DNA of 32,000 bases from an uncultured Nitrososphaerota archaeon. GTDB taxonomy: Archaea; Thermoproteota; Nitrososphaeria; Nitrososphaerales; Nitrosopumilaceae. The stretch is taken from the NCBI GenBank assembly GCA_963701075.1, contig OY969559.1, positions 1,550,540 to 1,582,539 on the forward strand, written 5' to 3'. Positions 1 to 30,377 of this stretch are shown piece by piece (position 1 is the stretch's first letter; every line of letters starts with the position of its first letter). The notes beneath the pieces were generated by a model. It worked only from the letters and a program-made list of their open reading frames with translations, was not told the DNA's origin and did not search any database. Made by a program: the position numbers and the translations under genes.

Positions 1-534
1 TGGTTCACATGGAAGAACCATTGCCATATGCCCCATTGTCGTATACCATGGAGTGGTGTCAGCCACATCCAGAAATTGTCCTGGTTTGAGATGTACGCTA
101 CCAAAATGGAACCATTCTTCAGTTGGGATGTTTGGAGGAGCATCAGCAGTTTGATTATATCCCGGTGAGAACGCTTCGCAGCGACCATAATATGCTATTC
201 CTTGATAGACATAGCACGGATTAGCTGCTGATGAAGCAGAGCTGTCTGCAACACACCAACCAGTGAATGTCCACGGATTACCTAAAAATGAGGTAGTATC
301 AGTGAAGGTTGGTATTGGCGGCCCTCCCAGATATGTGGCAGGATATGTCGTCTGCTGACAAGTTCCTTCAGATGTTGTGAACGCCGGTACATACACCCAA
401 GGAGTGGAGGTATACATTTTTGGGGTCACAAGTGCGTACGCAGAAGGTACTATGTGAGTCGGACCTAGTCCAAACCCAACAGTAGCAACAATTGTCAGTA
501 CTAGGATTGTAGTTAGAAGCGATTGTTTTTGCAC
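1..534 (-). CDS. secreted Cys-containing protein, partial (C-terminus runs off the left edge)
   Basis: Not in the supplied track. GTG start at 534-532, frame open to nt 1 (178 codons). N-terminus VQKQSLLTTILVLTIVATVGFGLGPTHIVPSAYA looks like a signal peptide. The tracked ORF 368..550 is in another frame and looks spurious. A TATA-like TTAAAATAAA and the palindromic motif at 571..593 lie upstream. Confidence 0.6.
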   Translation of the reverse strand, partial: MQKQSLLTTILVLTIVATVGFGLGPTHIVPSAYALVTPKMYTSTPWVYVPAFTTSEGTCQQTTYPATYLGGPPIPTFTDTTSFLGNPWTFTGWCVADSSASSAANPCYVYQGIAYYGRCEAFSPGYNQTADAPPNIPTEEWFHFGSVHLKPGQFLDVADTTPWYTTMGHMAMVLPCEP

Positions 535-570
535 TATTGAACTTGAACAAATTGATTTATTTTAAGAGTC

Positions 571-593
571 TGGTTCATTCTACAAATGTACCA
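571..593 (-). promoter_or_regulatory. imperfect palindrome TGGTTCA-N9-TGTACCA next to the TATA box of the 1..534 gene
   Basis: Read directly: tggttca ttctacaaa tgtacca. Same arm/spacer geometry as the perfect palindrome at 2398..2420. TATA-like tttattttaa at 556..565, 5 nt from the proximal arm; start codon at 534. Confidence 0.55.
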
Positions 594-687
594 GTAGTGT
601 TTTGAGATAAATCAACATGTTTTGTTTCTAAAGATCGTAAGTTTCTAAATCAGAATTTCTCAGGATCAAATACAATTTCGATACAAT

Positions 688-879
688 TTACAAATAGTTG
701 GAATCTATTTGTAATGCGAAATATTGTGGAGTGGCATTTGGATGTAAAATTTTTCCAACCCGATCCCCGTTGCACGGCATGACATGCCATACAACAAAGG
801 ATGGATCAGTGATGAAGTCAAAACGATACGCGTCTTGTTTATTGATTAAACATTTTACAAGATAAAGCAATAGATACAT
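688..879 (-). CDS. hypothetical small protein (63 aa), doubtful
   Basis: ATG-initiated ORF only, with no recognisable motif. It lies downstream of oligo-T tracts that may terminate the upstream gene. Confidence 0.25.
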   Translation of the reverse strand: MYLLLYLVKCLINKQDAYRFDFITDPSFVVWHVMPCNGDRVGKILHPNATPQYFALQIDSNYL

Positions 880-897
880 TTGCAGAATAAACCACTG

Positions 898-914
898 AAA
901 AAATTATGAAAAAA
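898..914 (-). terminator. candidate archaeal oligo-T terminator after the 935..2353 gene
   Basis: Two T6 tracts on the minus strand (A6 at 898..903 and 909..914 on plus), 21-37 nt past the stop codon. Oligo-T is the known archaeal termination signal. Confidence 0.3.
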
Positions 915-934
915 TAGATTCAGAATATACAGAG

Positions 935-2353
935 TCAGTTGCAGACAGGATTGTTTAGACAATGAAGACTTGCGCCAGTAAGAGTTGCACCGCCCAAGTC
1001 TACGCTCCTTAAATCAGCACCGTCAAAATTAGCTCCTGTTAGGTCTGCATAAGCAAATCCAGTACCTTGCAAGCTTGCACCCCTGAAATCAGCACCTCTA
1101 AGGTCAGAATTCATGAGAAGTGCACCGTCTAGATCCGCGCCATTAAATGAGACACGTTCCATAGTTGCCCACCTCATCTGACTCCCCTGCAAATTAGCAC
1201 CAGTCATGTTTGCACCATTAAGAGTCACATAGTCAAAATCAGAAGTTCCCAAGTCGGTGCCAATCATTTGCGTGCCACTCATATTTGCGCTAGAAAGATC
1301 ACTGTTTTCCATATTAGCATTGGTAAAGTTAGCAAAGTCAATGTTTGCTTCCACCAAGTCTGATTTGTAAAGGTTCGCACCAGCAAAATTTGCGCCAACA
1401 AGATTGGCTGACGATAGATTAACATGGCTTAGATTATTTCCAGATTTATCGCAGAACGCCCAATCCACACTAGGAAGGTTTTCTGTCTGACAATAACCCG
1501 CGTGACGTACCACATCTACATTTACTTGATATGGAGGCCTTGCGGGAGAACTGAAGTATTTTATATAATCAGCTGATGTCAAGTTGCCTGATGATAACAC
1601 TCCTGCCAAATCTGCTAGCGCATTAGGCGTGGATAGCATATTAGATTGTGGTGTTCCTGCCATACTATTCATCATACCTTGCGCGTAATAATCAAATGAA
1701 AATATTCCTGACATGCCAATCATGTTATTCTCAATCTTATCAAAGAAAGAAGGGATAATAATGCACTGCGATGTCTGTCCTGGCAAGCTTTGCGTGTTAA
1801 CACAATTTGGTTTTGAATATGACATGCTGCTACCAGAGGTCGACATGCCTGACATGCCGTTCATGCCTGACATGCCGTTCATGCCTGACATGCCGTTCAT
1901 GCCTGACATGCCGTTCATGCCTGACATTCCTGACATGCCTTGCGTATTACAATTTGTCATTTCCGACATGGCTTGCGGATTATATGCCATGCTTTGAACG
2001 TCATTACAGTATATCGTTTGCCCCATCGCTGTTAGCAAACCATCAGATGTACTGCTTATTCCTGACATGCTACTCATACCTGACATATTGGCAGACATCC
2101 CAGACATACCTTGCATGTTATTTGAAGATGAGTTAGCAAAGTTTTGACCTGAAACAAGAGTCTGTATCGAATTAATAAAATCTTGGTCACTGATTTGCCC
2201 ATTGGCCCACAGTAATGCCTTGTAATGAAACCATGCCGGTATGGTGGTTGGCATGACTTGGGCGCTAGCATGATTTTGTGACAATCCCATGCTGAGAATC
2301 AATACAGAGAAGAGTAGCGTTACTGCTGTTAATGTTATTCTTGTTGTTTGCAT
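935..2353 (-). CDS. secreted chimeric protein: signal peptide + IPAW..LWANGQISDQDF module + Met-rich (MSGM/MNGM) tracts + C-terminal pentapeptide-repeat domain
   Basis: N-terminal hydrophobic signal (LTAVTLLFSVLILSMGLS..ASA). Met-rich tracts QGMSGMSANMSGMSSMSG and GMSGMSGMNGMSGMNGMSGMNGMSGMNGMSGMS. About 170 aa of A(N/D)LxG-type pentapeptide repeats (ANLVGANFAGANLYKSDLVEANIDFANFTNANM...GADLRSVDLGGATLTGASL). Confidence 0.85.
   Translation of the reverse strand: MQTTRITLTAVTLLFSVLILSMGLSQNHASAQVMPTTIPAWFHYKALLWANGQISDQDFINSIQTLVSGQNFANSSSNNMQGMSGMSANMSGMSSMSGISSTSDGLLTAMGQTIYCNDVQSMAYNPQAMSEMTNCNTQGMSGMSGMNGMSGMNGMSGMNGMSGMNGMSGMSTSGSSMSYSKPNCVNTQSLPGQTSQCIIIPSFFDKIENNMIGMSGIFSFDYYAQGMMNSMAGTPQSNMLSTPNALADLAGVLSSGNLTSADYIKYFSSPARPPYQVNVDVVRHAGYCQTENLPSVDWAFCDKSGNNLSHVNLSSANLVGANFAGANLYKSDLVEANIDFANFTNANMENSDLSSANMSGTQMIGTDLGTSDFDYVTLNGANMTGANLQGSQMRWATMERVSFNGADLDGALLMNSDLRGADFRGASLQGTGFAYADLTGANFDGADLRSVDLGGATLTGASLHCLNNPVCN
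1844..1915 (-). repeat. four perfect tandem copies of an 18-bp unit (catgcctgacatgccgtt) inside the CDS, decaying to about 1940
   Basis: Read directly. Units at 1844, 1862, 1880 and 1898, with a fifth diverged copy from 1916. They encode (NGMSGM)n on the minus strand. Confidence 0.95.
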
Positions 2354-2397
2354 TTATCTTCTAAGAATCTAGAATTGCTGCGAGATAATAAATAACA

Positions 2398-2420
2398 TGG
2401 TACATTCGATAATTGTACCA
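2398..2420 (-). promoter_or_regulatory. perfect palindrome TGGTACA-N9-TGTACCA next to the TATA box of the 935..2353 gene
   Basis: tggtaca ttcgataat tgtacca, with 7-bp arms that are exact reverse complements. TATA-like ataataaataa at 2385..2395, 2 nt from the proximal arm; ATG at 2353. Confidence 0.65.
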
Positions 2421-2535
2421 ATATTCAGATTTTAAAACTAGAAATTAATTTTGCATTTTAATAAATGAATTTAGAAATATGTTGTAATTATATTAAAGTG
2501 TAAATATTTTTTATCATTGTTCCTTAGCGTTTAAT

Positions 2536-3429
2536 TTATTTTCTTGGAATCACTCTAGACATAACTATTATACCAACAAATGATATCATCACAAGTAGTA
2601 TTGGCATAGGAAACTCCGGTACGGCAGTTATATTGAATGCAGATATCAGGTTAGGATGAATTTGCATGTGCACCACCATCATGACATCATTACCAGATCC
2701 CTGGGCATCTATTTTTTGTTTGAGTTCAGGGAGCGCAGTTCCAACTTTGTCAAGGTATACGGATGTACTTGACGGTGCAATTGATTGCAAATTATTAAAC
2801 ATGGTTTGAGCCGCATCAGTCATAGCCTGTGCACTTTGATATGCCGCCATATTGACAATTGGCGTGCTAGATGCAGTACTAGATGATGACATTCCGGACA
2901 TGCTGCCCATGTTCATATTATTCATGTTGGTAAGATCTACCTTGGACCCTATAGCATTACCATAGTCCTTCAACACTTCATTTAAGACATAAACCGTTGC
3001 AAGTGCCTGTACCGTAGCGTTATTTTGTGAAGCGCTGCTGACTTCTTCTGATTCTGCTTGGTCCAAGAGTTGGCCTATCTCATCTGCAGTTTGGTTTGCT
3101 GCGGCAGGATTTGCGTTTGGTTGTCCTGCCATAGAATACAAGTCATCTATAGATGTAGATAACTGAGTAGCAAGACTCGAGTTTGTTTGAGAAAGAATGC
3201 CCATCTCGTTGCTTCCCCAATATTCCTGACTTTGCGATATGTGCCACTGGGCCAAGGTACTATTAGAAATATTATTTGCTATCAATTTTGATTCTACCTT
3301 GAACTCTTGAACTTTTGCTATCAAACTTGCATCTGAATTTTGAACAAAGTTATGGGCAAACGCTGGATGAGCAACCAACATGCCACTGAACACAATAACC
3401 ATTATTGATACCGCCAGCGCCCTTTTCAT
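2536..3429 (-). CDS. secreted helical protein with predicted N-terminal His after signal cleavage, Met-rich tract and PEF-CTERM sorting tail
   Basis: Signal MKRALAVSIMVIVFSGMLVAHPAFA followed by HNFVQ. Met-rich tract MNNMNMGSMSGMSSSS. C-terminus AVPEFPMPILLVMISFVGIIVMSRVIPRK (PEF + TM + basic tail). Confidence 0.8.
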   Translation of the reverse strand: MKRALAVSIMVIVFSGMLVAHPAFAHNFVQNSDASLIAKVQEFKVESKLIANNISNSTLAQWHISQSQEYWGSNEMGILSQTNSSLATQLSTSIDDLYSMAGQPNANPAAANQTADEIGQLLDQAESEEVSSASQNNATVQALATVYVLNEVLKDYGNAIGSKVDLTNMNNMNMGSMSGMSSSSTASSTPIVNMAAYQSAQAMTDAAQTMFNNLQSIAPSSTSVYLDKVGTALPELKQKIDAQGSGNDVMMVVHMQIHPNLISAFNITAVPEFPMPILLVMISFVGIIVMSRVIPRK

Positions 3430-3465
3430 ACCAGTGGGTGCGCTGGCAACATTTTAAAATATTTT

Positions 3466-3472
3466 GGTACAC
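3466..3472 (-). promoter_or_regulatory. TGTACCA heptamer (gene orientation) 5 nt upstream of the TATA box of 2536..3429
   Basis: Plus strand tggtaca. TATA-like attttaaaat at 3451..3460; ATG at 3429. Confidence 0.5.
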
Positions 3473-3485
3473 ACATCAAGTAAAA

Positions 3486-3794
3486 TTAATCTGGGTTTTT
3501 TCGCGTTATGGCTACAACTGCTATCACTACACCGGCTGCACCAATTCCTATACCAGCCATGCTTATGACGTATAATGTATCAGTTGTGTCCTTTACTTCT
3601 TGAAAAGACTGGGCAACTTTTGCATAACTTTGAGCTGCATTATCTGCAGTATTCTTTGCGTCGGTGATATCATTGGTTAGCTGATTGATGACATTTTGAG
3701 ACACTTGTGCTGATACAGGATGTATAACATGTGGCGACATTGCAATAACCGTCACAGCAAGAATCGCCGCAAGTATCAATTGTCTGGATTTCAT
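3486..3794 (-). CDS. small secreted/membrane-anchored protein (signal peptide + C-terminal TM)
   Basis: MKSRQLILAAILAVTVIAMSPHVIHPVSA signal, a helical Q/N/D-rich middle, and C-terminal MAGIGIGAAGVVIAVVAITRKNPD. Confidence 0.65.
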   Translation of the reverse strand: MKSRQLILAAILAVTVIAMSPHVIHPVSAQVSQNVINQLTNDITDAKNTADNAAQSYAKVAQSFQEVKDTTDTLYVISMAGIGIGAAGVVIAVVAITRKNPD

Positions 3795-3835
3795 TTCGTT
3801 ATATCAACAAGTGTCGAATTTTCATAAATATGTTA

Positions 3836-3842
3836 TGGTACA
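3836..3842 (-). promoter_or_regulatory. TGTACCA heptamer 4 nt upstream of the TATA box of 3486..3794
   Basis: Plus strand tggtaca. TATA-like ttcataaatat at 3821..3831; ATG at 3794. Confidence 0.5.
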
Positions 3843-3864
3843 AATTCAAAGATTGTGAAATGGT

Positions 3865-4479
3865 TTAGAATTTAAGAAATCCTCTTGTTCTTCCAGTGAC
3901 TACAACAACACTGATTATTGCAATCACAAGAACCAGAGAAGCTACAGGACCAAATTCTGGCACAGTTTGATTGCCTGACATGGTGCTGTTCCCAGTCATG
4001 TTCATGCCTGACATACTAGTCATGGCTGGAAAGTAATACGCGTCCTTGGCTTCAACATCTTGCAGAGGATATGTGGTAGAAGGTATTGTTGTTCCGCCTA
4101 TTGTACCCTGGATTATCATGTTATAGGTTCCAATCTGAGTTGGATTCACAGCGGCATCATACTCTCCAGGCGTATCATCGCTTGGGTCAAAGCTTACTAC
4201 CTTTGTCTGTCCACCATACTGGATGGTTGTGGTCATGTTGTCAAGACCAGTATCTGCGATAGGCGGTGCGTTGTCACTTGTTCCGTTGTATATGAATATC
4301 TGGACTGCATTTGCGTCACCTACAAGCGGTGGCTCATTTACCCAGCCGATCTTTATCGTGACGTTGTTAAATGTTTTTGTGATGTGTGCTTCAGCTGGAT
4401 GAAGTGCAAATGGTGTAACCAAAATAGCAACTAGAGCAAAAACTACGGGAACTAAAAATTTTCTAAGATTCACCCACAT
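3865..4479 (-). CDS. secreted beta-sandwich-like protein with predicted N-terminal His, Met-rich tract and PEFG-CTERM tail (duplicate copy A)
   Basis: Signal ...FALHPAEA followed by HITKTF. Met-rich tract PAMTSMSGMNMTGNSTMSGNQT. C-terminus VPEFGPVASLVLVIAIISVVVVTGRTRGFLKF. Only 11 nt downstream of the 4491..4940 gene, so probably co-transcribed with it. Confidence 0.85.
   Translation of the reverse strand: MWVNLRKFLVPVVFALVAILVTPFALHPAEAHITKTFNNVTIKIGWVNEPPLVGDANAVQIFIYNGTSDNAPPIADTGLDNMTTTIQYGGQTKVVSFDPSDDTPGEYDAAVNPTQIGTYNMIIQGTIGGTTIPSTTYPLQDVEAKDAYYFPAMTSMSGMNMTGNSTMSGNQTVPEFGPVASLVLVIAIISVVVVTGRTRGFLKF
4042..4409. repeat. direct repeat copy A (368 bp, near-identical to 4509..4876)
   Basis: Manual alignment at a constant offset of 467 bp with only a handful of mismatches (e.g. 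ccgcct/ccgtct, gagttggattcacagcggc/gagtcggaatcacagcagc). Confidence 0.9.
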
Positions 4480-4490
4480 TCACTCCACTA

Positions 4491-4940
4491 TCAAGGAAAG
4501 TTATACTTGTCCTTGGCTTCAACATCTTGCAGAGGATATGTGGTAGAAGGTATTGTTGTTCCGTCTATTGTACCCTGGATTATCATGTTATAGGTTCCAA
4601 TCTGAGTCGGAATCACAGCAGCATCATATTCTCCAGGCGTATCATCGCTTGGGTCAAAGCTTACTACCTTTGTCTGTCCACCATACTGGATGGTTGTGGT
4701 CATGTTGTCAAGACCAGTATCTGCGATAGGCGGTGCGTTGTCACTTGTTCCGTTGTATATGAATATCTGGACTGCATTTGCGTCACCTACAAGCGGTGGC
4801 TCATTTACCCAGCCGATCTTTATCGTGACGTTGTTAAATGTTTTTGTGATGTGTGCTTCAGCTGGATGAAGTGCAAGTGGAACCATAATAACTGCTGCCA
4901 AAGCTAGAATTACTGTGACTACAAATTTTCTAGATTTCAT
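4491..4940 (-). CDS. secreted beta-sandwich-like protein with predicted N-terminal His (duplicate copy B), lacking the Met-rich and PEFG-CTERM tail
   Basis: Signal MKSRKFVVTVILALAAVIMVPLALHPAEA followed by HITKTF. The mature domain is almost identical to 3865..4479 but stops at ...KDKYNFP. Confidence 0.85.
   Translation of the reverse strand: MKSRKFVVTVILALAAVIMVPLALHPAEAHITKTFNNVTIKIGWVNEPPLVGDANAVQIFIYNGTSDNAPPIADTGLDNMTTTIQYGGQTKVVSFDPSDDTPGEYDAAVIPTQIGTYNMIIQGTIDGTTIPSTTYPLQDVEAKDKYNFP
4509..4876. repeat. direct repeat copy B (368 bp, near-identical to 4042..4409)
   Basis: See copy A. Confidence 0.9.
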
Positions 4941-4984
4941 GTCTCTCCTGTGATTATCATCAAATTATTTTCTTATATACGTTA

Positions 4985-4991
4985 TGGTACA
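4985..4991 (-). promoter_or_regulatory. TGTACCA heptamer 5 nt upstream of the TATA box of the 4491..4940 / 3865..4479 operon
   Basis: Plus strand tggtaca. TATA cttatata at 4972..4979; ATG at 4940. Confidence 0.5.
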
Positions 4992-5026
4992 AAATCAAAA
5001 CAAGAATTGTTGTTCTATTTTACAAC

Positions 5027-5033
5027 TGTACCA
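5027..5033 (+). promoter_or_regulatory. TGTACCA heptamer 6 nt upstream of the TATA box of the CopC-CopD gene
   Basis: tgtacca, then TATTAAATTATAA at 5040..5052; ATG at 5081. It shares the divergent intergenic region with the 4985 site. Confidence 0.5.
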
Positions 5034-5080
5034 CTATTGTATTAAATTATAAGTGTTCATGAAACGTATAGATTGTATTT

Positions 5081-8000
5081 ATGACAGAAAGAACGAGAGG
5101 GCCAAAATCAACAATCAAAATAATTTTGCTAGTCGTTGTAGCTGTATCGGTCTTGGTCGTGGTGCCAAACATACCCAAGTCTTATGCGCATGCATTTGTT
5201 ATTGGTAGTGATCCTGCACCATTTGCGTCATTGAATACTCCACCAACACAAGTTGAAGTAGATTTTGTTGATCCCATAGACATGCGATATAGTCAGATAA
5301 AGGTCTTGGATTCTAACGGTAAAGAAGTCAATAACAACGACTGGCATTTCATCACTGCTGATCATGAAAAATCAGTTGTTACTTTACCTTCCATTCCGAA
5401 TGGAATTTACACTGTGTATACCAAAGTTCTTGATGCCACTGATGGCCATACCACTACAAACGCATTTGTTTTTGCCGTTGGCCAACCTATACCACAGAAT
5501 CTCTTAAACCAAAAAGAGAGTGTTTCCTTTACAGATATCGTATCCATTCAAGATACAATAGCAAGGTATCCATCACTTGTTGGACAAATCATTGTAGTTG
5601 GTGCTATCTTCTCAACTTTCTGGTTATGGAAACCACTATCTAGAATCTCTGCATTAAAAGACGTCTTTGGACAGACTCGCGTCATGATAGACAAGAGTAT
5701 GACCAAGTTGGTGCTAATTGGCTCAATAATTATTCTGGGTGGAGATGCGGCAATGATTTCATCTGAGATGTATTCAATAAATTCAGGACTCCTAGATGCA
5801 ATTAGCACGAATTTTGGACAAATGTGGATTGTACGTATGTCACTTTCTGCAGCCCTATTTGGAGTGGCATTTGTTGCATACCGTAAACAAAAGCAGTCAA
5901 ATGGGGTCTTGCCCAAAGGCCTAGTCGCAACTCTGTTTGGACTGGGGATAGCGGTACTTACGACAACTACACTGATAAGCCATGGTGCAGCAAGCGGAAA
6001 ATTTTTGGCACTAGTTTTTGATTTCGTACACAACGTTGTTGCTTCACTCTGGATTGGAGGTGTGATATATCTGGCGTTTGTTGTGGCACCGCTATTGAAA
6101 CGTATGCCTGATGATCGTGCCAGCGTTGCCATCATGTCTGTGATAATACCAAGATTCTCCACGGTAGTTGTTGCACTACTTGGCATAGTTGCAATGACAG
6201 GTCCCTCTCTTCTTTACGAACTTGAAAACAACCTCTCCCTCACTCTAGCATCCATATACGGAGATATACTTATCATAAAACTCTCATTGGCCGGTGCCAT
6301 GATTGGAGTTGGCGCTTTCCATCAGTTCATAATTTTTCGACAAGCGCGAAGCGCCATTGCTGTCTCGCCTCAGCAAGAGCATCATGTTGCCATGCCAATC
6401 GATCTAAAAATTCCTATCAAGAGGGGAAGCGAGGGCAAATCAGTCATCTCACATTTTGGCCGATTCATAAAAATTGAGGCAATAATAGGATTTTTGCTGA
6501 TTGCTTCAATAGCAGTTCTTGTCGATTCCGGTCTGCCCGCAATTCAATATCAAAATGAATTGTCGCAACAGAAAAACCAGATTCCGCCTGTCTACGCCTT
6601 TGCAACGCCACTTGTAACGCAGAACCAATTTACAGAAACGCGATTTACAGACACGGGGGACAAAATTGTCTTATCCATCAGTCCGTTCTATTCCGGAAAG
6701 AATAATGTAACGCTCTCGTTTTTTGATTCAAATGGTAACCCACTGAACAGCATAAACTCCACAACGATAACGCTTAACCAAGTAGACAAGGGCATAGGTC
6801 CGTTAGTGGTAGGGTACAACCCACTCGAACCACAGTTCAATAGCAGCAACTCTAAAGAGATATCACCGGGGGTATTTTCCATTAGCACAAGTGCCTTTGC
6901 AATACCGGGTCACTGGGAAGCACAGATAGAGGGAACAACCACACAGGCTGGTGCACTTAACGAGGTTACAACTTTTGATGATCTATATGTCAAGCCTAAC
7001 TTGGCCCAGCTGCAGGCAAACATAACAGAATACAAAATGCCAGATAACGCCCAGCCGTTGTATCCTCTTTATGATCCCATCAGAAATATAGTCTGGGTTG
7101 GAGACTCGGCCATTGGGAGTGGGAGGTTATGGGAGTTTGATCTAGACTCCAAACAGTTTACAGAACATAAGATCAATGGAACCAACATCATCATGTATAC
7201 AATAATGGACTTTCAAAACAACATTTGGTATTCTGACCCCCTAACAAAGATCTTGGGTAATTACGAACCAGACACGGGCAAAGAGCAGAATTACAATCTT
7301 CCTGCCAATGAGACCATTTCAGGTCTTGCCATAGACAACACAGGCAATCTTTGGATGACCTCTGCGTCAAGTAACCAACTGCTAGAATTTGACATGCAGA
7401 AAAAAACATTCCATTCATTGGACCTGCCAGCAAACTCTTCACCACTTGGAATTTCCATAGATCAATCAACCAACCAGATATGGGTAGCAGAAAGTAGTTC
7501 TGGAAAGATAGCAGAGGTAGATCCTTCCCAAAACTACAAAGTGACAGAATATGGTCCATCCAATGGCACCCTTGCAAGTCCCACGACGATTCTATTTGAC
7601 CCTGTAACTGGCAAAGTTTTTGTCTCAGAGCATGATGGCAAGGCAGTATCAGTTTTTGATCCCCTGACCAAGTCATTCGAAAGATATCAGACAGATCCTG
7701 ATCCTCAGGATCTGCCCTTTGGAATGGCATTTGATGCAAACCATGATCTATGGCTTGCTCAACACACCTTTGATAAGATTGCAGTTATAGATCCTAGAAC
7801 TGGCAAAACAAACGAATTTCCCATCCCTACGAAATCATCTTTTACCCAATGGGTCACAGCGGATTCAAAGGGAGATATAATACTGGCAGAACAACGCGCA
7901 AATGCACTTGGTCTTCTTACTACTAGCACAACTCCAGGATTTATCGAAAACGCCGAACAAACAGGTTCAGTCTTGGGCATACCACTGCCATTTAGTTATG

Positions 8001-8119
8001 CAGATGTGGTAGGACCCTCGATTGCAGGTTGCCTCGTAGCAGTGGCATTTCTCTACTCTAAAACCGTAATAGAGTTAAGTGACAGTTTGAGACATATAAA
8101 GAAAAACTACGGCCAGTGA
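5081..8119 (+). CDS. CopC-CopD fusion protein with an extracytoplasmic Ig-like domain, NHL/Vgb-like beta-propeller and C-terminal TM anchor
   Basis: The signal ends ...PKSYA, then HAFVIGSDPAP...VEVDFVDPI...IKVLDSNGKEV...GIYTVYTKVLDATDGHTTTNAFVFAVG, the classic CopC pattern. About 8 hydrophobic helices follow (residues about 160-480, CopD-like). Then repeated blades (IVWVGDS..GRLWEFD, NIWYSDP, NLWMTSASSNQLLEFD, QIWVAESSSGKIAEVD, KVFVSEHDGKAVSVFD, DLWLAQHTFDKIAVID). C-terminal TM IAGCLVAVAFLY. Confidence 0.9.
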   Translation: MTERTRGPKSTIKIILLVVVAVSVLVVVPNIPKSYAHAFVIGSDPAPFASLNTPPTQVEVDFVDPIDMRYSQIKVLDSNGKEVNNNDWHFITADHEKSVVTLPSIPNGIYTVYTKVLDATDGHTTTNAFVFAVGQPIPQNLLNQKESVSFTDIVSIQDTIARYPSLVGQIIVVGAIFSTFWLWKPLSRISALKDVFGQTRVMIDKSMTKLVLIGSIIILGGDAAMISSEMYSINSGLLDAISTNFGQMWIVRMSLSAALFGVAFVAYRKQKQSNGVLPKGLVATLFGLGIAVLTTTTLISHGAASGKFLALVFDFVHNVVASLWIGGVIYLAFVVAPLLKRMPDDRASVAIMSVIIPRFSTVVVALLGIVAMTGPSLLYELENNLSLTLASIYGDILIIKLSLAGAMIGVGAFHQFIIFRQARSAIAVSPQQEHHVAMPIDLKIPIKRGSEGKSVISHFGRFIKIEAIIGFLLIASIAVLVDSGLPAIQYQNELSQQKNQIPPVYAFATPLVTQNQFTETRFTDTGDKIVLSISPFYSGKNNVTLSFFDSNGNPLNSINSTTITLNQVDKGIGPLVVGYNPLEPQFNSSNSKEISPGVFSISTSAFAIPGHWEAQIEGTTTQAGALNEVTTFDDLYVKPNLAQLQANITEYKMPDNAQPLYPLYDPIRNIVWVGDSAIGSGRLWEFDLDSKQFTEHKINGTNIIMYTIMDFQNNIWYSDPLTKILGNYEPDTGKEQNYNLPANETISGLAIDNTGNLWMTSASSNQLLEFDMQKKTFHSLDLPANSSPLGISIDQSTNQIWVAESSSGKIAEVDPSQNYKVTEYGPSNGTLASPTTILFDPVTGKVFVSEHDGKAVSVFDPLTKSFERYQTDPDPQDLPFGMAFDANHDLWLAQHTFDKIAVIDPRTGKTNEFPIPTKSSFTQWVTADSKGDIILAEQRANALGLLTTSTTPGFIENAEQTGSVLGIPLPFSYADVVGPSIAGCLVAVAFLYSKTVIELSDSLRHIKKNYGQ

Positions 8120-8181
8120 TGCCACACCGCATAGGCAGTCACAGATAGCATCATCAGACTATATCAGGCACGTTCGTTCGT

Positions 8182-8188
8182 TGTACCA
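8182..8188 (+). promoter_or_regulatory. TGTACCA heptamer 5 nt upstream of the TATA box of the 8223..9115 operon
   Basis: tgtacca cttgg TTTAAAT (8194..8200); GTG start at 8223. Confidence 0.5.
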
Positions 8189-8222
8189 CTTGGTTTAAAT
8201 TTCATTTTGACCAATTTCCATT

Positions 8223-8615
8223 GTGTTCAGGCCCCAAACTCTGATTGAGACTAAGTCTACACTGTTAAGTGTAATAATATTTGCACTTGTTGCAGCGTTA
8301 TCAATTCCTGTCATCCTACCCCACATATTTCAACAATACGAGCTTTTCCACATACTTTTACACATTAGCGGAATAGGTTTTGCGTCTTTTCTTACAATAG
8401 TAGCTGCAATGGCATATCACAAGGTCAAGACCCGCAGACTTCTTTTCACTACCATTGCGTTTGGCACTTTTATTTTGTCTGAAGTATTTGATCTAATTGA
8501 TGCAGCATGGCAGTCAAAATATTATTTTTGGAGTTTTTCATCATCTGAGATAGCTCATCTTATCATGTTCTTCACATTACTGATGTTTGCACTAAGTGTG
8601 TTTAGGAGAGATTGA
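8223..8615 (+). CDS. small integral membrane protein (about 4 TM helices)
   Basis: GTG start. Four hydrophobic segments (LLSVIIFALVAALSIPVIL, ILLHISGIGFASFLTIVAAMAY, LLFTTIAFGTFILSEVF, IAHLIMFFTLLMFALSVF). 4-nt overlap with the next gene. Confidence 0.65.
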   Translation: MFRPQTLIETKSTLLSVIIFALVAALSIPVILPHIFQQYELFHILLHISGIGFASFLTIVAAMAYHKVKTRRLLFTTIAFGTFILSEVFDLIDAAWQSKYYFWSFSSSEIAHLIMFFTLLMFALSVFRRD

Positions 8616-9115
8616 AAATGGATAGAGTTACACAGTTAATTGAGGTTATTGAAAAAAACCCTGGAATAAAATTTCGCGAGATAATGCGAGAGACTGGAAT
8701 GAAAAACGGCGTTCTAGGATATTATGCAGGCAAGCTAGAAAGAGAGGGATCTGTAAAGGTTGATAGAAGTCCTGGGCAGACTAGATTTTATCCTCCAGGA
8801 ATATCAGATGATGACACATTACTGATAAAGAATCTAAGACAGGAGACACCAAGGCAGATTCTTGCATCTTTATTGCAATATGGAATGCTATCATTCAATG
8901 AGCTAGTTGAGAAGACACGAAAATCTCCGGCTACAGTTTCCCTCTATCTCTCACAAGTAACAAGAGACAATATCATTGAAAGTAAACTAGTCGATTTCAA
9001 AAAGAGATACCATGTTAAAGACATAGAAAAATTACAAAAAATTATTGATAAATATCATCCAAGCTTGATTGAAAGTTCAGCGGATCATCTTGCCGATACT
9101 TTCTCATCACTTTAA
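8612..9115 (+). CDS. archaeal transcriptional regulator with two winged-helix (ArsR/MarR-like) modules
   Basis: IEVIEKNPGIKFREIMRETGMKNGVLGYYAGKLEREGSVKV and RQILASLLQYGMLSFNELVEKTRKSPATVSLYLSQVTRDNIIE both fit wHTH patterns. ATGA overlap with the upstream membrane-protein gene. Confidence 0.7.
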   Translation: MKMDRVTQLIEVIEKNPGIKFREIMRETGMKNGVLGYYAGKLEREGSVKVDRSPGQTRFYPPGISDDDTLLIKNLRQETPRQILASLLQYGMLSFNELVEKTRKSPATVSLYLSQVTRDNIIESKLVDFKKRYHVKDIEKLQKIIDKYHPSLIESSADHLADTFSSL

Positions 9116-9359
9116 AAACATCACAGATATTATTTTCACAATATTTGAGTTAAAAAGCAGACAGCCGAGAACGAAGATCAGCGTTTATTTAGAGTTCAGA
9201 TAAATGCATACGATAAGATGGCACATGTCATGAGATCTGCATATTTTTTCAGCTATTTTCATCATTGTTGTTTCCCTTTTCCTTGTTTCAAAAGCACACG
9301 GTGACGGTTTAGTTAGTGAGATTCTTCCACCGTCTCTGATAGGAAACACTAATGTTACT

Positions 9360-10667
9360 TTGTCTATTGGTTCTGTCCCATTTTTAATTAACGATACTCA
9401 CGTAGGGACACAGTTGAATCTCGTACTGATGGATGCCGACACCCAGCAGCCAATTCAGGATGCAACACTTGCAATTTCAGCATTCAAGGGTCAGAATGCA
9501 GTTTTTGGCCACATATTCAAGAGTGATAGCGGAAATTTTATTTTGAGTTTTTATCCACAACAATCTGGCAACACGACATTTGACGAACAGGGCGGGCTTC
9601 TTTCAGACTTGTTCGGTCAAGATAGTGGAAATTACGACGTAAAAGGCCCAATCTTTAACACAGCAGGATTGTATAGATTCAAAATCGAGGTTATTACGAT
9701 GGGTGCATATGATAATCAAGTAAGCAGGTCGTATACTGCCGGTATATCAATACCAGAATATGACAACCTTACAATTAACGATCCAGGTTACGGAACTCAA
9801 CAGATGCAGATCATAGCATATTATGATAGGTTGCAGAACATCACATATGATCCAGTCAAAAAATTTGTTAATTTCACCATGCCATTTGACTGGTCAAATC
9901 AGACCATAAGCCAACTGAGTGTAGTACATCAAGAGATCAGAATTCCAAGAACTCTGGGAGATCTGGTGGTAACAAAATATGATGCCTATGTGAACAACAT
10001 CAAGATACCTGACAAGCTGATATCAATAGATGATTACTCCATGGATGCATATAGAATAGTGCATCTCATTTTATACAAGCCCGATGTACAAAATCTTTTT
10101 TCAGAACAAAAAGATCCGGGTCAAGTGATGAATTTTGCAATGAGGCCAAGCAATGATAACGCTTTCCCAATTGTACAGTTTACTAGAAATGCACAGTATA
10201 AAATAGCACTAAGTTGGAATCCACCAAAGATCCTAACTGGTTCCACTGTACAGTTTAACTTTAAGGTTCTAGATCCATTTGCCATGAATACAACAGTGAG
10301 TCCAATTTCTTATGATTTTTCTGTACTTGAAGGAGAAAATGGAGTGATATACCACCAGATAGGAAAAACAACTGATACAAGCTACGGAGACAACATCAAT
10401 GTCGCATTTCCATCTAATTACACAGGATCAATCACAATAGCATTTGAGAACCTAAATGGAAGTAGTTTTTCTGCTACAGAATTTCCAGCTACAGTTAGCA
10501 ACCCAGCAATGACAACCAATCAATCAGCAGTCAACAGCCAAGCTATTGCAGCTAATCAATCTACAGTGCCAGAGTTTCCGTTAACTACATTTGTAGTACT
10601 TGCAACCGTATTTGGATTAGTTGTGTCATTTTCAAAGATGAGTTTGCTCAAATCAATGCGGATTTGA
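9360..10667 (+). CDS. secreted PEF-CTERM protein; 5' end apparently disrupted (see finding)
   Basis: C-terminus STVPEFPLTTFVVLATVFGLVVSFSKMSLLKSMRI. The tracked TTG start lacks a signal peptide. The same frame is open upstream from 9234 and encodes IFSAIFIIVVSLFLVSKAHG, but the ATGs (9218, 9230) are in the adjacent frame. Confidence 0.8.
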   Translation: MSIGSVPFLINDTHVGTQLNLVLMDADTQQPIQDATLAISAFKGQNAVFGHIFKSDSGNFILSFYPQQSGNTTFDEQGGLLSDLFGQDSGNYDVKGPIFNTAGLYRFKIEVITMGAYDNQVSRSYTAGISIPEYDNLTINDPGYGTQQMQIIAYYDRLQNITYDPVKKFVNFTMPFDWSNQTISQLSVVHQEIRIPRTLGDLVVTKYDAYVNNIKIPDKLISIDDYSMDAYRIVHLILYKPDVQNLFSEQKDPGQVMNFAMRPSNDNAFPIVQFTRNAQYKIALSWNPPKILTGSTVQFNFKVLDPFAMNTTVSPISYDFSVLEGENGVIYHQIGKTTDTSYGDNINVAFPSNYTGSITIAFENLNGSSFSATEFPATVSNPAMTTNQSAVNSQAIAANQSTVPEFPLTTFVVLATVFGLVVSFSKMSLLKSMRI

Positions 10668-24901: not shown

Positions 24902-25405
24902 CTACAAACCAAACTTGAACTTGGTCTTTGAGGAAATTGCAATTATTGATAAAATTGATACAGCAAGAATAACAAATGACAGAGAACCAAATTCTGGAAG
25001 AACTTGTGTTCCTATTATTTCAATTCTTTCAGTGCCATTAGTGAATCCGATTGAAAGAGTTCTATCAGTGCCTGTTTTGTTTTCATGAAAGTCAGTATAA
25101 GTATCATCCACAAGAACAATGAACTGATCATCGTTTGCACCAACCTTTGCATCAATTAGAGTTCTAGGCAGGTCTATAATCAAATTCCCATCGCTTGTAG
25201 AATTTAGTGAAATTACAAGCGACGTTTCATGAGTGCTAATCAGCATATCGTTTATCGTTGCACCTGTTATTGTGTAGTTAACGTTGTAAGATTGCCCACC
25301 TGCAGGATTCTTTATGACATAGATATTCGTCGATTGTGCAAAGGACGGCGCACTTGCCAAAGAGATCACAAATACAGCCAAAATCAAATATGGTTTCCAG
25401 TGCAC
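24902..25405 (-). CDS. secreted PEFG-CTERM protein
   Basis: Signal ...LASAPSFA, a beta-rich body, and C-terminus VLPEFGSLSFVILAVSILSIIAISSKTKFKFGL. GTG start. Confidence 0.8.
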   Translation of the reverse strand: MHWKPYLILAVFVISLASAPSFAQSTNIYVIKNPAGGQSYNVNYTITGATINDMLISTHETSLVISLNSTSDGNLIIDLPRTLIDAKVGANDDQFIVLVDDTYTDFHENKTGTDRTLSIGFTNGTERIEIIGTQVLPEFGSLSFVILAVSILSIIAISSKTKFKFGL

Positions 25406-27375: not shown

Positions 27376-28101
27376 TCACTTTAATGGAAATTGCAATTTT
27401 GCCTTCGCTGAAATAATTATGATAGAAACCATAGAGAAAATAAGAACTGCTGATACAACAGATCCAAACTCTGGCACAGTAGGCTGCGGTCCTACATAAA
27501 ATGTGTATACGGATCTCTCAAAATCCGCTGCATTTTGATTAAAACCATTCGGTGATGAGACCATAACAAGGAAATACTGCCTGCCATCCTTTAACCAGAA
27601 GGAAAATTCTTCAGTAATTGGACTATTCTGCGTAGCTTGGTTCCCTAAGGCAGTTTGATTCTCTGCAACAACTGCTTGAATCACAAAGCCGTCAGAAAAC
27701 CTCTGAATATTTTTTTGATATACAACATATTTTGATGTATCAAATAGCTTTGCAATGGCAAGATCTAGAATCTGATCATCTGGGATCGATAATACCGCGT
27801 CAGATATGGGTTTACCTTGATAAAAGTAAATTGCAAAGTTGGCCGTGCTGTTTTGATTCTCATTTTCAAATACTGCCAATGTTGAATCTGACTGATTGGT
27901 CTGTGGCACTGGAATCCACCCAAGCGGAGGCAAAATGGAAAAGTTGTACGCAGGATCAGTATATGTATTGGTTTGAATGTTTGCAGGGTTAAACATAGGA
28001 GTTAACGAACTCTGAGTAGTGTTTCCTTCTGCCCATGCAGGATTTGTCATCAAGAAAGTAAGGGTAACGCCCAACAGAATAGAGCAAAAAACTAATCTCA
28101 A
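27376..28101 (-). CDS. secreted PEFG-CTERM protein (possibly PsbP/DUF1795-like fold)
   Basis: TTG start. Signal ...LMTNPAWA, FSILPPLGWIPVP, and C-terminus TVPEFGSVVSAVLIFSMVSIIIISAKAKLQFPLK. Confidence 0.75.
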   Translation of the reverse strand: MRLVFCSILLGVTLTFLMTNPAWAEGNTTQSSLTPMFNPANIQTNTYTDPAYNFSILPPLGWIPVPQTNQSDSTLAVFENENQNSTANFAIYFYQGKPISDAVLSIPDDQILDLAIAKLFDTSKYVVYQKNIQRFSDGFVIQAVVAENQTALGNQATQNSPITEEFSFWLKDGRQYFLVMVSSPNGFNQNAADFERSVYTFYVGPQPTVPEFGSVVSAVLIFSMVSIIIISAKAKLQFPLK

Positions 28102-28982: not shown

Positions 28983-30377
28983 ATGAATTTTATGTTAAAA
29001 TATTTTTTACTTCTTTTGCTTTTTGTTCCTGCCGAATCATTTGCCTTTACAACAGGTCAGAATGCTACTTTGGTCATAGGACATGATGATTTTGATACAG
29101 GAGGGACAATCCATGATAATGCAACATCAGACGTCCTGTATTCTCCAGACGGCGTGGCATTTGATAAATCAGGAGATCTTTGGATTGCGGATACTGGATT
29201 CAATCGTTTGCTAGAGTTTGCTCCTCCGTTTACAAGCGGTGAAGAAGCAACACTTGTACTAGGACAAGATGATTTTGTTTCCACCAGTCCTGCATTGTCT
29301 GCAACTGGTCTTGACCAACCCTATGGATTAGCATTTGATAGTGACGGAAACATTTGGGTTGCTGATACTAATAACAACAGAATAGTGGAATACAGGACAC
29401 CTTTTACAAATGGCGAAACAGTCTCTCTTGTGATTGGATATCCAAGCTTTGACAAAGGCGTATATCCAACAACTGCAGGCTCACTTGCTGCTCCATATGG
29501 ACTTGCGTTTGACAAATCAGGAAACTTGTGGGCCGTGGATTATTATAACAACAGAATACTGGAATATGTTCCACCATTCAAAAATCAAATGAATGCATCA
29601 CTTGAAATAGGACAGCCTGATCTTACAAGCAATTCGGATGGAACAACTGCAAATCGATTGAATTTACCAAGTGCTATTGCATTTGATGAAAAAGGTAACC
29701 TATGGGTGACTGACAGTCTTAATAACAGGGTACTAGAGTTTTCTTATCCATTTTCTACTGACCAATCTGCTACATTGGTAGTTGGACAAGAAAATTTTAC
29801 AACAAACCTTCCAGGTGTTACTGATGATTCCATGAATACTCCATACGGAATAATATTTGACAGATCAGGAAACTTGTGGGTTACTGATGGAAACAACGCT
29901 AGAGTCTTGGGATATACCCCACCATTTAGCAACGGTATGAGCGCGTCTCTTGTTTTAGGTCAGACAAATTTTGCTGAGATGGTTTCCGGTACATCGGCTA
30001 ACCTGTTGGCTGAACCATATGATGTAAAAGTAGATAATAGTGGTAACCTTTGGGTTGCAGACACTGACAACAACAGAGTGCTAGAATTTGCTACAACTGT
30101 CACTAGCACCCAGATTCCATCATGGGTCAAAAACAACGCCAAATGGTGGTCAGAAGACACTATTAGCGACCAGACATTTGTAAGCGGAATTCAATACATG
30201 ATAAAAGAGGGAATCATAGTTGTTCCATCTACCAATTCTAGCACTAGCCAATCACAGCAGATTCCCTCATGGATAAAGAATTCAGCAGGGTGGTGGGCAA
30301 GCGGTCAGATATCAGACGATAGCTTTGTGAAAGGAATCCAATATCTTATCAGCAATGGAATAATCAATGTTGGATGA
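28983..30377 (+). CDS. secreted six-bladed NHL-repeat protein with two C-terminal IPSW..WW..ISD..F..GIQY modules
   Basis: Signal ...VPAESFA. Six repeats of the type P(Y)G(L/I)AFD.SGNLWV(A/T)D..NNR(V/I)LE(F/Y). Modules at 30114..30224 (IPSWVKNNAKWWSEDTISDQTFVSGIQYMIKEGIIVV) and 30261..30374 (IPSWIKNSAGWWASGQISDDSFVKGIQYLISNGIINVG). Confidence 0.85.
   Translation: MNFMLKYFLLLLLFVPAESFAFTTGQNATLVIGHDDFDTGGTIHDNATSDVLYSPDGVAFDKSGDLWIADTGFNRLLEFAPPFTSGEEATLVLGQDDFVSTSPALSATGLDQPYGLAFDSDGNIWVADTNNNRIVEYRTPFTNGETVSLVIGYPSFDKGVYPTTAGSLAAPYGLAFDKSGNLWAVDYYNNRILEYVPPFKNQMNASLEIGQPDLTSNSDGTTANRLNLPSAIAFDEKGNLWVTDSLNNRVLEFSYPFSTDQSATLVVGQENFTTNLPGVTDDSMNTPYGIIFDRSGNLWVTDGNNARVLGYTPPFSNGMSASLVLGQTNFAEMVSGTSANLLAEPYDVKVDNSGNLWVADTDNNRVLEFATTVTSTQIPSWVKNNAKWWSEDTISDQTFVSGIQYMIKEGIIVVPSTNSSTSQSQQIPSWIKNSAGWWASGQISDDSFVKGIQYLISNGIINVG

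Follow-up and report, generated by a model that had tools for sequence, protein, structure and literature searches.

A putative copper-acquisition regulon of an ammonia-oxidising archaeon that combines a CopC-CopD fusion with N-terminal-histidine proteins

In Bacillus subtilis, copper starvation induces the ycnKJI operon, in which YcnJ has the domain order CopC-CopD-YtkA and YcnI, a membrane-anchored Cu(II) protein with an N-terminal-His/Glu/Trp site, exchanges Cu(II) with the CopC domain of YcnJ (PMC12154828, PMC13344008). In the archaeon Nitrososphaera viennensis, copper limitation induces copC/D_a, copC/D_b and neighbouring exported proteins of unknown function; the induced genes around both copC/D loci carry the motif TTCSGSMTTTGWACYANT at -35 to -70, and an ArsR-type regulator co-transcribed with a motif-bearing gene is induced as well (Reyes et al. 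2020, PMC7785015). Here we analyse a 9.1-kb island at positions 1-9115 of a 32,000-nucleotide (nt) window, the whole stretch of archaeal DNA under study, taken from contig OY969559.1. Eight complete genes, and a ninth that the window edge truncates, make up the island; they are numbered g0 to g8 in map order, and the source names of their homologues lead us to judge the host to be probably Nitrosotalea, an acidophilic (acid-soil) ammonia oxidiser. A preliminary description of this DNA had proposed a module for capturing or buffering copper at the cell surface; all of the open reading frames (ORFs) that it listed were recovered in place, and every feature that it described is present in the sequence. 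We conclude, with a probability of roughly 70%, that the island is a Nitrosotalea copper-acquisition regulon that captures copper at the cell surface under copper scarcity and is organised like B. subtilis ycnKJI. The evidence supports the capture half of the earlier proposal and speaks against the buffering of excess copper.

The island resembles ycnKJI in several respects. Gene g6 (5081-8119, + strand) encodes a 1012-residue CopC-CopD-propeller fusion with a His-brace Cu(II) site predicted from its residues, and g8 (8612-9115, +) encodes a linked transcription factor, a cytoplasmic protein of 167 residues with two winged-helix domains. The neighbouring genes g5 (4491-4940, -) and g4 (3865-4479, -) encode signal-peptide proteins with a His at predicted mature position 1 (His1) and conserved Glu and Trp residues, and most members of their family have a transmembrane anchor. 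Furthermore, an orthologous archaeal cluster is induced by copper limitation (PMC7785015). Unlike YcnI, however, g4 and g5 are not DUF1775 proteins and their Trp lies elsewhere in the sequence, and in Nitrosotalea this partner is split into a free domain (g5), a Met-rich copy with a PEFG anchor (g4) and a separate stalk-anchor (g3). The archaeal g6 adds a beta-propeller and a final transmembrane helix that YcnJ does not have. In place of a YcnK-type repressor, the island has a tandem winged-helix regulator paired with a His-rich membrane protein, g7 (8223-8615, +; 130 residues, four helices).

The likeness to the N. viennensis regulon concerns both gene order and promoter sequence. CopCD, a small membrane protein and an ArsR-type regulator stand in this order in the Nitrososphaera loci L034, L035, L039 and L051, exported proteins of unknown function lie nearby, and the motif core TTTGWACYA is found at -35 to -70. 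The match to the N. viennensis copper-limitation motif is the main reason why we read the island as a copper-starvation regulon. The sequence TGTACCA occurs 12 times in the window against 4.2 expected, a count reached in none of 100 shuffles; eight copies fall within the approximately 1.1 kb of intergenic DNA of positions 1-9359, and the other four lie inside ORFs. The box is located 35-54 nt before the start codons of six genes (g1, g2, g3, g5, g6 and g7), with a TATA-like box a few bases downstream. This Nitrosotalea box is the core of the published TTCSGSMTTTGWACYANT, and the exact TTTGTACCA is present at g3 and g5. In Nitrososphaera loci L033, L034, L035 and L039 the equivalent intergenic position holds TGTGGTACAAAGCCCGAA, the complement of TTCSGSMTTTGWACYANT, or a variant that differs from it at one or two positions. 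Nitrosotalea does not keep the 5' part of the published motif, TTCSGSM, which the Nitrososphaera loci do have; its site instead forms a palindrome, GGTACA-N9-TGTACC.

TGTACCA is a half-site of this 21-bp palindrome. A perfect copy, the one match against 0.00 expected, forms the operator of g1 at 2399-2419, with its proximal half-site at -51 to -45. The palindrome is imperfect upstream of g0, g6 and g7. At g0 the operator (572-592) is a near-palindrome with one mismatch, GGTTCA-N9-TGTACC. The g5/g6 divergent promoter (4941-5080) contains the g5 box TTTGTACCA at 4985-4991 (-), the g6 TGTACCA at 5027-5033 (+) and a degenerate palindrome at 5012-5032. The g7 operator (8167-8188, +) reads GGCACG-N9-TGTACC, with two mismatches, and its TGTACCA at -41 to -35 is followed by TTTAAATTT. 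At g2 the TGTACCA (3465-3471, -) is at -42 to -36, just upstream of the TATA-like ATATTTTAAAA, and at g3 the TTTGTACCA box (3836-3842, -) is at -48 to -42, followed by ATATTTAT. Since g4 starts 11 nt after g5 without a promoter of its own, and g8 overlaps g7 by 4 nt, both use the promoter of their neighbour. The arrangement is kept in other genomes: the palindrome precedes five of six related pentapeptide-repeat genes (L008, L009, L010, L014 and L015; L003 has a half-site), and the paired boxes of the CopCD/His1 divergent promoter are retained in 14 Nitrosotalea-type loci. The proposal of a coordinated module under one motif is supported, with TGTACCA at six promoters and a full or near palindrome before several genes.

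The identification of g6 as a CopCD fusion was confirmed by Pfam matches to CopC (PF04234, residues 37-133, 51.6 bits against a cut-off of 23.3, E = 2e-13) and CopD (PF05425, residues ~170-480, 42.6 bits against 32.1, E = 8e-11). The complete order is signal peptide, CopC, CopD membrane domain, immunoglobulin (Ig)-like middle domain, Vgb_lyase/NHL-type beta-propeller and C-terminal transmembrane helix; the propeller (E = 2e-21) was absent from the preliminary description. In 17 archaeal fusions CopC residues H37 and D121-G122-H123 are invariant, as are CopD residues H301, D314 and H317. The CopC residues correspond to the predicted Cu(II) ligand set of the Met-less C0-1 class, and g6 has at most two Met per 20 residues. 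The propeller (residues ~690-980) has invariant residues of its own in Nitrosotalea, Nitrosocosmicus and Nitrososphaera (W716, D719, W801, E804, H851, D885 and H895). Faint YtkA-like matches near CopD in one marine and one Nitrososphaera relative recall the CopC-CopD-YtkA order of Bacillus YcnJ. In a Dehalococcoidia metagenome-assembled genome (L047, 5790-8048) and a related contig (L048, 5625-7790), the CopC-CopD fusion has a terminal cytochrome c domain, not a propeller. This suggests that the variable C-terminal extracellular domain of CopCD fusions may function in copper redox chemistry.

Signal-peptidase sites were judged by residue conservation and the rule of small residues at -3 and -1. 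Three cleavage contexts with His at +1 had been described, and all are present, in four proteins: ...HPAFA|HNFVQ in g2, ...HPAEA|HITKTF in both g4 and g5, and ...PKSYA|HAFVIGSDP in g6. The -3/-1 rule is satisfied at all four sites. Within each family the His is invariant: H30 in g4/g5 alignments A1, A2, A4 and A7, H26 in g2 alignments A3 and A5, and H37 in the 17 CopCD fusions. Among distant relatives of the 149-residue g5, the motif H...GW..EP is found in 145 of 148; in those 145, Ala directly precedes the matched His in 127, and Ala or Val occupies -3 in 121.

The g4/g5 family extends far beyond this lineage. A word-indexed protein search returned Nitrosotalea-type relatives only, the last search of this type, limited to 8000 candidates, gave at least 11 matches, and a full HMMER profile scan of the family gave 987 cluster representatives at E<=1e-3. 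In an alignment of 149 sequences, reaching down to 24% identity, H30 is the sole fully invariant column; E47, P48, N55, Y105 and G115 vary little or not at all, and W44 is close to invariant. The g5 protein (149 residues) consists of the His1 Ig-like beta-sandwich domain alone, without an anchor, while the 204 residues of g4 comprise the same domain (AEA|H), the Met tract MTSMSGMNMTGNSTMSG and a PEFG-CTERM sorting tail. Most relatives have a signal peptide, the domain, a helical stalk and a C-terminal transmembrane helix. In Nitrosotalea the stalk-anchor is a separate gene, g3 (3486-3794, -; 102 residues: signal peptide, helical stalk and C-terminal transmembrane anchor); it is fused to the His1 domain in P0046, P0068, P0101, P0106 and most distant relatives. 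The g3 signal peptide (MKSRQLILAAILAVTVIAMSPHVIHPVSA) is similar to that of g5, and g3 looks like a His1 paralogue minus the Ig domain. The mature-domain DNA of g4 and g5 is ~98% identical, with a run of ~250 nt fully identical, whereas the signal-peptide regions are ~60% identical and the same paralogue pair in other Nitrosotalea is 60-70% identical; this pattern points to recent gene conversion of the tandem copies.

An AlphaFold model of g5 (predicted local distance difference test score, pLDDT, 89) is an eight-stranded Ig-like sandwich in which strands 30-35 and 38-44 form a hairpin. The register of this hairpin would therefore place His30 beside residues 43-47. Comparison of the g5 profile with PDB sequences gave chance matches only, and DUF1775 had no Pfam match among the window proteins or the 149 relatives. 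A weak hhalign match links the g5 domain to the middle domain of g6 (E = 1e-3, probability 21%). Additionally, PF13115 (YtkA-like) was matched at E<=0.01 by 14 of the 149 g5 relatives (best 2.6e-8) and FixH by one, with no match among the window proteins. YtkA-like/FixH proteins (PF13115; CtaK and the YcnJ C-terminal domain) share with g4/g5 an extracytoplasmic Ig-like beta-sandwich tied to copper delivery, which for g4/g5 is the proposed role, but the hallmark of g4/g5 is the invariant His at mature position 1 with GW..EP. We know of no description of this combination for YtkA domains. Similarly, CopC proteins of the C0-1 class are beta-sandwiches that bind Cu(II) through the His at their mature N-terminus and work with CopD, and g6 has a genuine CopC domain at its N-terminal end; g4 and g5, unlike CopC, have no Asp-x-His pair. 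One sampled family member with a source name is annotated merely as a hypothetical protein, and the family has no Pfam or NCBIfam name. Beyond the sorting tail of g4, Pfam and NCBIfam scans gave no match for g2, g4, g5, g7, the g6 middle domain, the g0 fragment or the downstream gene g9.

The strongest evidence for a copper role of g4/g5 is their adjacency to CopCD in both archaea and bacteria. Of 39 loci from ammonia oxidisers (Nitrosotalea, Nitrosocosmicus and Nitrososphaera), ~30 have a His1 gene next to the CopCD fusion. CopC or CopC-CopD is also the immediate neighbour in nine of ten loci of profile-found members, among them loci on contigs with 64-67% G+C and in a genome from Dehalococcoidia; eight of the members at these ten loci are 26-34% identical to g5. 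A genome scan with a closer alignment returned only Nitrososphaerota, and the bacterial loci come from single look-ups. In high-GC bacterial loci L043 (5353-5946), L049 (4398-4973) and L042 (638-1354), a gene for a small membrane protein, in which GH..DY, GH and E..ER motifs are conserved, immediately precedes the His1 gene and CopCD. After CopCD, L043 encodes a lipoprotein whose DUF4399-like match is weak, and L049 an apparently similar one. Membrane protein, His1 protein, CopCD and lipoprotein may form a conserved four-gene bacterial cluster.

The second family with an N-terminal His is that of g2 (2536-3429, -), a secreted, all-helical protein of 297 residues with the context AFA|H. Residues H26, F28, H254 and H258 (H254-x3-H258, HxxIHP) are invariant in its relatives, and H63 is close to invariant. 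Relatives down to 24% identity keep the His and small residues at -1 and -3, in the contexts AFA, VFA, IYA and ALA|H. The central loop is Met-rich in 108 of 111 family members, and in one relative a plastocyanin domain with a Cys-His-Met ligand motif is inserted in this loop. Relatives at 28-31% identity occur in clusters with CopC/CopD genes and a g7-like/g8-like pair. In the all-helical model of g2 (pLDDT 84), the N-terminal residues appear paired to the segment that follows the last helix. A match of the g2 profile to SipD among PDB sequences (E = 0.0016) was rejected as due to a low-complexity stretch.

Met tracts had been described in three proteins, and a density of at least five Met per 20 residues is confined to these three: g1 (935-2353, -; a secreted pentapeptide-repeat protein of 472 residues), g2 and g4, with seven, five and five, respectively. 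Other window ORFs reach at most four, and the other PEF/PEFG-tailed window proteins at most two. For the PEF(G) tails reported on two of the Met-rich proteins, that of g4 is supported by the PEFG-CTERM model TIGR04296 (residues 173-197, 26.0 bits against a cut-off of 25, E = 5.3e-6), whereas that of g2 stands by motif only (VPEFP, a hydrophobic stretch and a basic end). Neither the g2 tail nor that of g9 matches the PEFG-CTERM model; both have the pattern of PEF, hydrophobic and basic residues alone. A second Met-rich insert is found in the hairpin turn after HILKTF in 21 near g4/g5 relatives. Two more PEFG-tailed secreted proteins of the window (24902-25405 and 27376-28101, both -), used as internal controls, have neither a Met tract nor a TGTACCA box.

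The g7-g8 pair is a candidate for the regulatory part of the island. In Nitrosotalea, Nitrososphaera and Nitrosocosmicus, g7 has invariant P-H, H-x3-H and E-x2-H motifs, and it is always followed by g8 in the loci compared. Pfam matches of g8 are HTH_24 (E = 8e-12), HTH_HVO_0163_N (E = 5e-10) and HTH_5 (PF01022, E = 1.8e-6), the last at residues 81-123 with 28.2 bits against a cut-off of 22. From these sequence features g8 is a candidate to bind the palindrome, and g7 a candidate membrane copper sensor or small transporter. We infer that copper status is sensed by g7 or another partner.

Together, the CopC ligand set H37/D121/H123, the N. viennensis motif, the adjacency of His1 genes to CopCD and the plastocyanin insertion in a g2 relative give indirect support to the link to copper that the preliminary description had drawn. 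We propose the following scheme. When copper is scarce, a g8 dimer, possibly informed by the His-rich g7, would act on the palindromes to turn the genes on. The free g5 and the PEFG-anchored g4 would bind Cu(II) through the His1 amino terminus and imidazole and Glu47, near Trp44; such a site would be a mono-histidine brace of the kind known from YcnI. The Met tracts of g4, g2 and g1 may retain Cu(I) or concentrate copper locally, and g2 may bind metal through His1 and its HxxxH pair. Copper would then pass to the CopC domain of g6 and across the membrane via CopD. In this scheme g3 would represent the detached stalk-and-anchor module of an ancestral His1 protein.

A bolder proposal, to which we give somewhat less than even odds, is that the 149/204-residue family is a third independent class of N-terminal-His Cu(II) carriers, after CopC and YcnI/DUF1775, with about a thousand 50%-identity clusters and serving archaeal as well as bacterial CopD importers. 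The same proposal would make g7-g8 a new type of switch for copper starvation: a membrane protein lined with His would signal to a tandem winged-helix regulator that has no cysteine and would bind GGTACA-N9-TGTACC.

Several results weigh against copper acquisition as set out here. The top Foldseek match of the g5 model in the PDB was CrdA, a copper-resistance determinant of Helicobacter (E = 4e-4, template modelling (TM) scores 0.47/0.62), followed by filamin repeats, and the best solved-structure matches of g5 are generic Ig/filamin folds. Homology of g4/g5 to YcnI was rejected (hhalign of alignment A4 against the YcnI sequence of 7ME6, probability 0.1%), as was homology to CopC (0.3-0.7%, the CopC domains of ammonia-oxidising archaea giving 0.7%). 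Foldseek with the g2 model found nothing significant, the best matches being EfeO/EfeM/Algp7 (E = 0.16-0.5, TM 0.2-0.29); g2 could not be placed in this M75, imelysin-like group, and no sequence match was found in the PDB or Pfam. The CopCD orthologues of L003, L010 and L022 have Glu before the CopC His (SYE|H), and Glu at -1 is unusual for signal peptidase I. The regulator g8 misses the ArsR/SmtB metalloregulator model NF033788 (21.7 against 55 bits), and it has no Cys and, across eight orthologues, no invariant His, which leaves no conserved residue of either kind to sense copper directly.

The Met tracts weigh in the same direction. On the His1 domain they occur, with the PEFG tail, in 54 of 113 near relatives, whereas of 148 distant g4/g5 relatives one has a Met tract and none a PEFG tail; Met tracts and PEFG anchoring on this domain are thus confined to the Nitrosotalea lineage, a further difference from N. 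viennensis. The Met-rich insert of g1 was found only in g1 and L008, and three of the four Nitrosotalea orthologues compared lack it, which makes it a variable tract. Being lineage-specific on the His1 domain and missing from most g1 orthologues, the Met tracts may therefore be dispensable low-complexity linkers.

The better of the rival explanations is copper resistance or buffering, in which the His1 and Met-rich proteins would sequester excess Cu(II) and Cu(I) at an acidophile surface with high free copper while CopCD detoxifies. Met-x-x-Met tracts are typical of the periplasmic Cu(I) resistance proteins PcoA/CopA, PcoE and CusF, which those of the island resemble, and Met tracts and extra His1 copies have expanded in the acidophilic Nitrosotalea lineage only. 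Furthermore, Pfam and NCBIfam call the domains of g6 copper resistance or copper homeostasis proteins C and D, and CrdA, the first structural match of g5, is itself a resistance determinant. However, the orthologous N. viennensis cluster and its motif are induced by copper limitation and not by excess (PMC7785015), and the CopC site is of the Met-less C0-1 type, which is tied to uptake in YcnJ, YebZ and P. fluorescens CopCD (PMC12154828, PMC13344008). The ORF list and the Pfam scan also revealed no efflux ATPase, multicopper oxidase or CusCBA-type gene in the island. On balance we regard resistance as unlikely.

Less probable still is the view that the proteins other than CopCD are plain surface or S-layer-associated components, with His1 and Met linkers that are incidental or serve iron, nickel or zinc and a CopCD co-location that reflects shared envelope biogenesis: the plain Ig/filamin-like fold of g5, the non-significant scores to iron-uptake EfeO/EfeM as the sole structural leads for g2, the several further PEF/PEFG-tailed surface proteins of the window and the pentapeptide-repeat protein g1, which has no known metal role, would fit it, but it is opposed by a +1 His that is the only fully invariant position in 149 g4/g5 sequences, by CopC-CopD adjacency from Nitrosotalea to Dehalococcoidia, by the plastocyanin domain inside a g2 relative, by the remaining PEFG proteins of the window, which have neither Met tracts nor TGTACCA boxes, and by the absence from the island of any transporter gene for iron (EfeU/EfeB included), nickel or zinc.

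Further surface proteins lie in and beside the island. The gene g0 (1-534, -) is the 5' part of a gene for a secreted protein that the window edge cuts, with a GVG start at 534-532 and the signal peptide ...VPSAYA|LVTPK. The fragment had no Pfam match. We count g0 as a member of the regulon because an operator sits upstream of it, and g0 homologues occur close to the equivalent cluster in L003, L008 and L010. The g1 protein consists of a signal peptide, a small W-x-W/DQDF domain, the Met-rich low-complexity insert (38 Met, (MSGMNG)n) and a pentapeptide-repeat beta-helix that ends in a Cys pair (PF00805, residues ~290-470, 131.9 bits, E = 5e-39). A W-x-W...G-x-ISD-x-F...GIQ motif, with a single copy near the g1 N-terminus, has two copies at the C-terminal end of a secreted protein with NHL repeats (28983-30377, +); it appears to be a small surface module that these archaea use repeatedly.

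Beyond the range of the earlier note lies g9 (9231-10667, +), a syntenic PEF-tailed secreted protein with no TGTACCA box upstream. It was considered as a fourth His1 protein and rejected, its +1 residue being His, Gln or Tyr among orthologues. The g9 orthologues start at the ATG at 9231, and an extra C near 9252 in the present sequence (TTTTTTCAGCT compared with TTTTTTAGCT in L024) shifts the frame of the signal peptide, so that either the assembly is wrong here or the gene is a pseudogene.

The energy metabolism of ammonia oxidisers runs on copper enzymes, and their acquisition of copper is poorly understood. For Nitrososphaera, the regulon and its motif are already published, and the logic of the system is that of ycnKJI. 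That study called cop gene regulation an open question; most motif-bearing induced genes were hypothetical or unknown, the exported proteins were left uncharacterised, and the N-terminal His, the HxxxH pair and the link to bacterial CopCD neighbours were not remarked there (PMC7785015). New here are the recognition of the unknown exported proteins as two N-terminal-His families, the reach of g4/g5 into bacteria, the palindromic operator and the g7-g8 pairing. The exported proteins thereby gain concrete features: a predicted His at the mature N-terminus together with Glu and Trp, Met loops and an HxxxH pair. The operator is defined as a 21-bp palindrome, and candidates for the regulator and for a membrane sensor can be named. 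In bacteria, the His1 partner of CopCD would fill the role of Bacillus YcnI with an unrelated sequence family.

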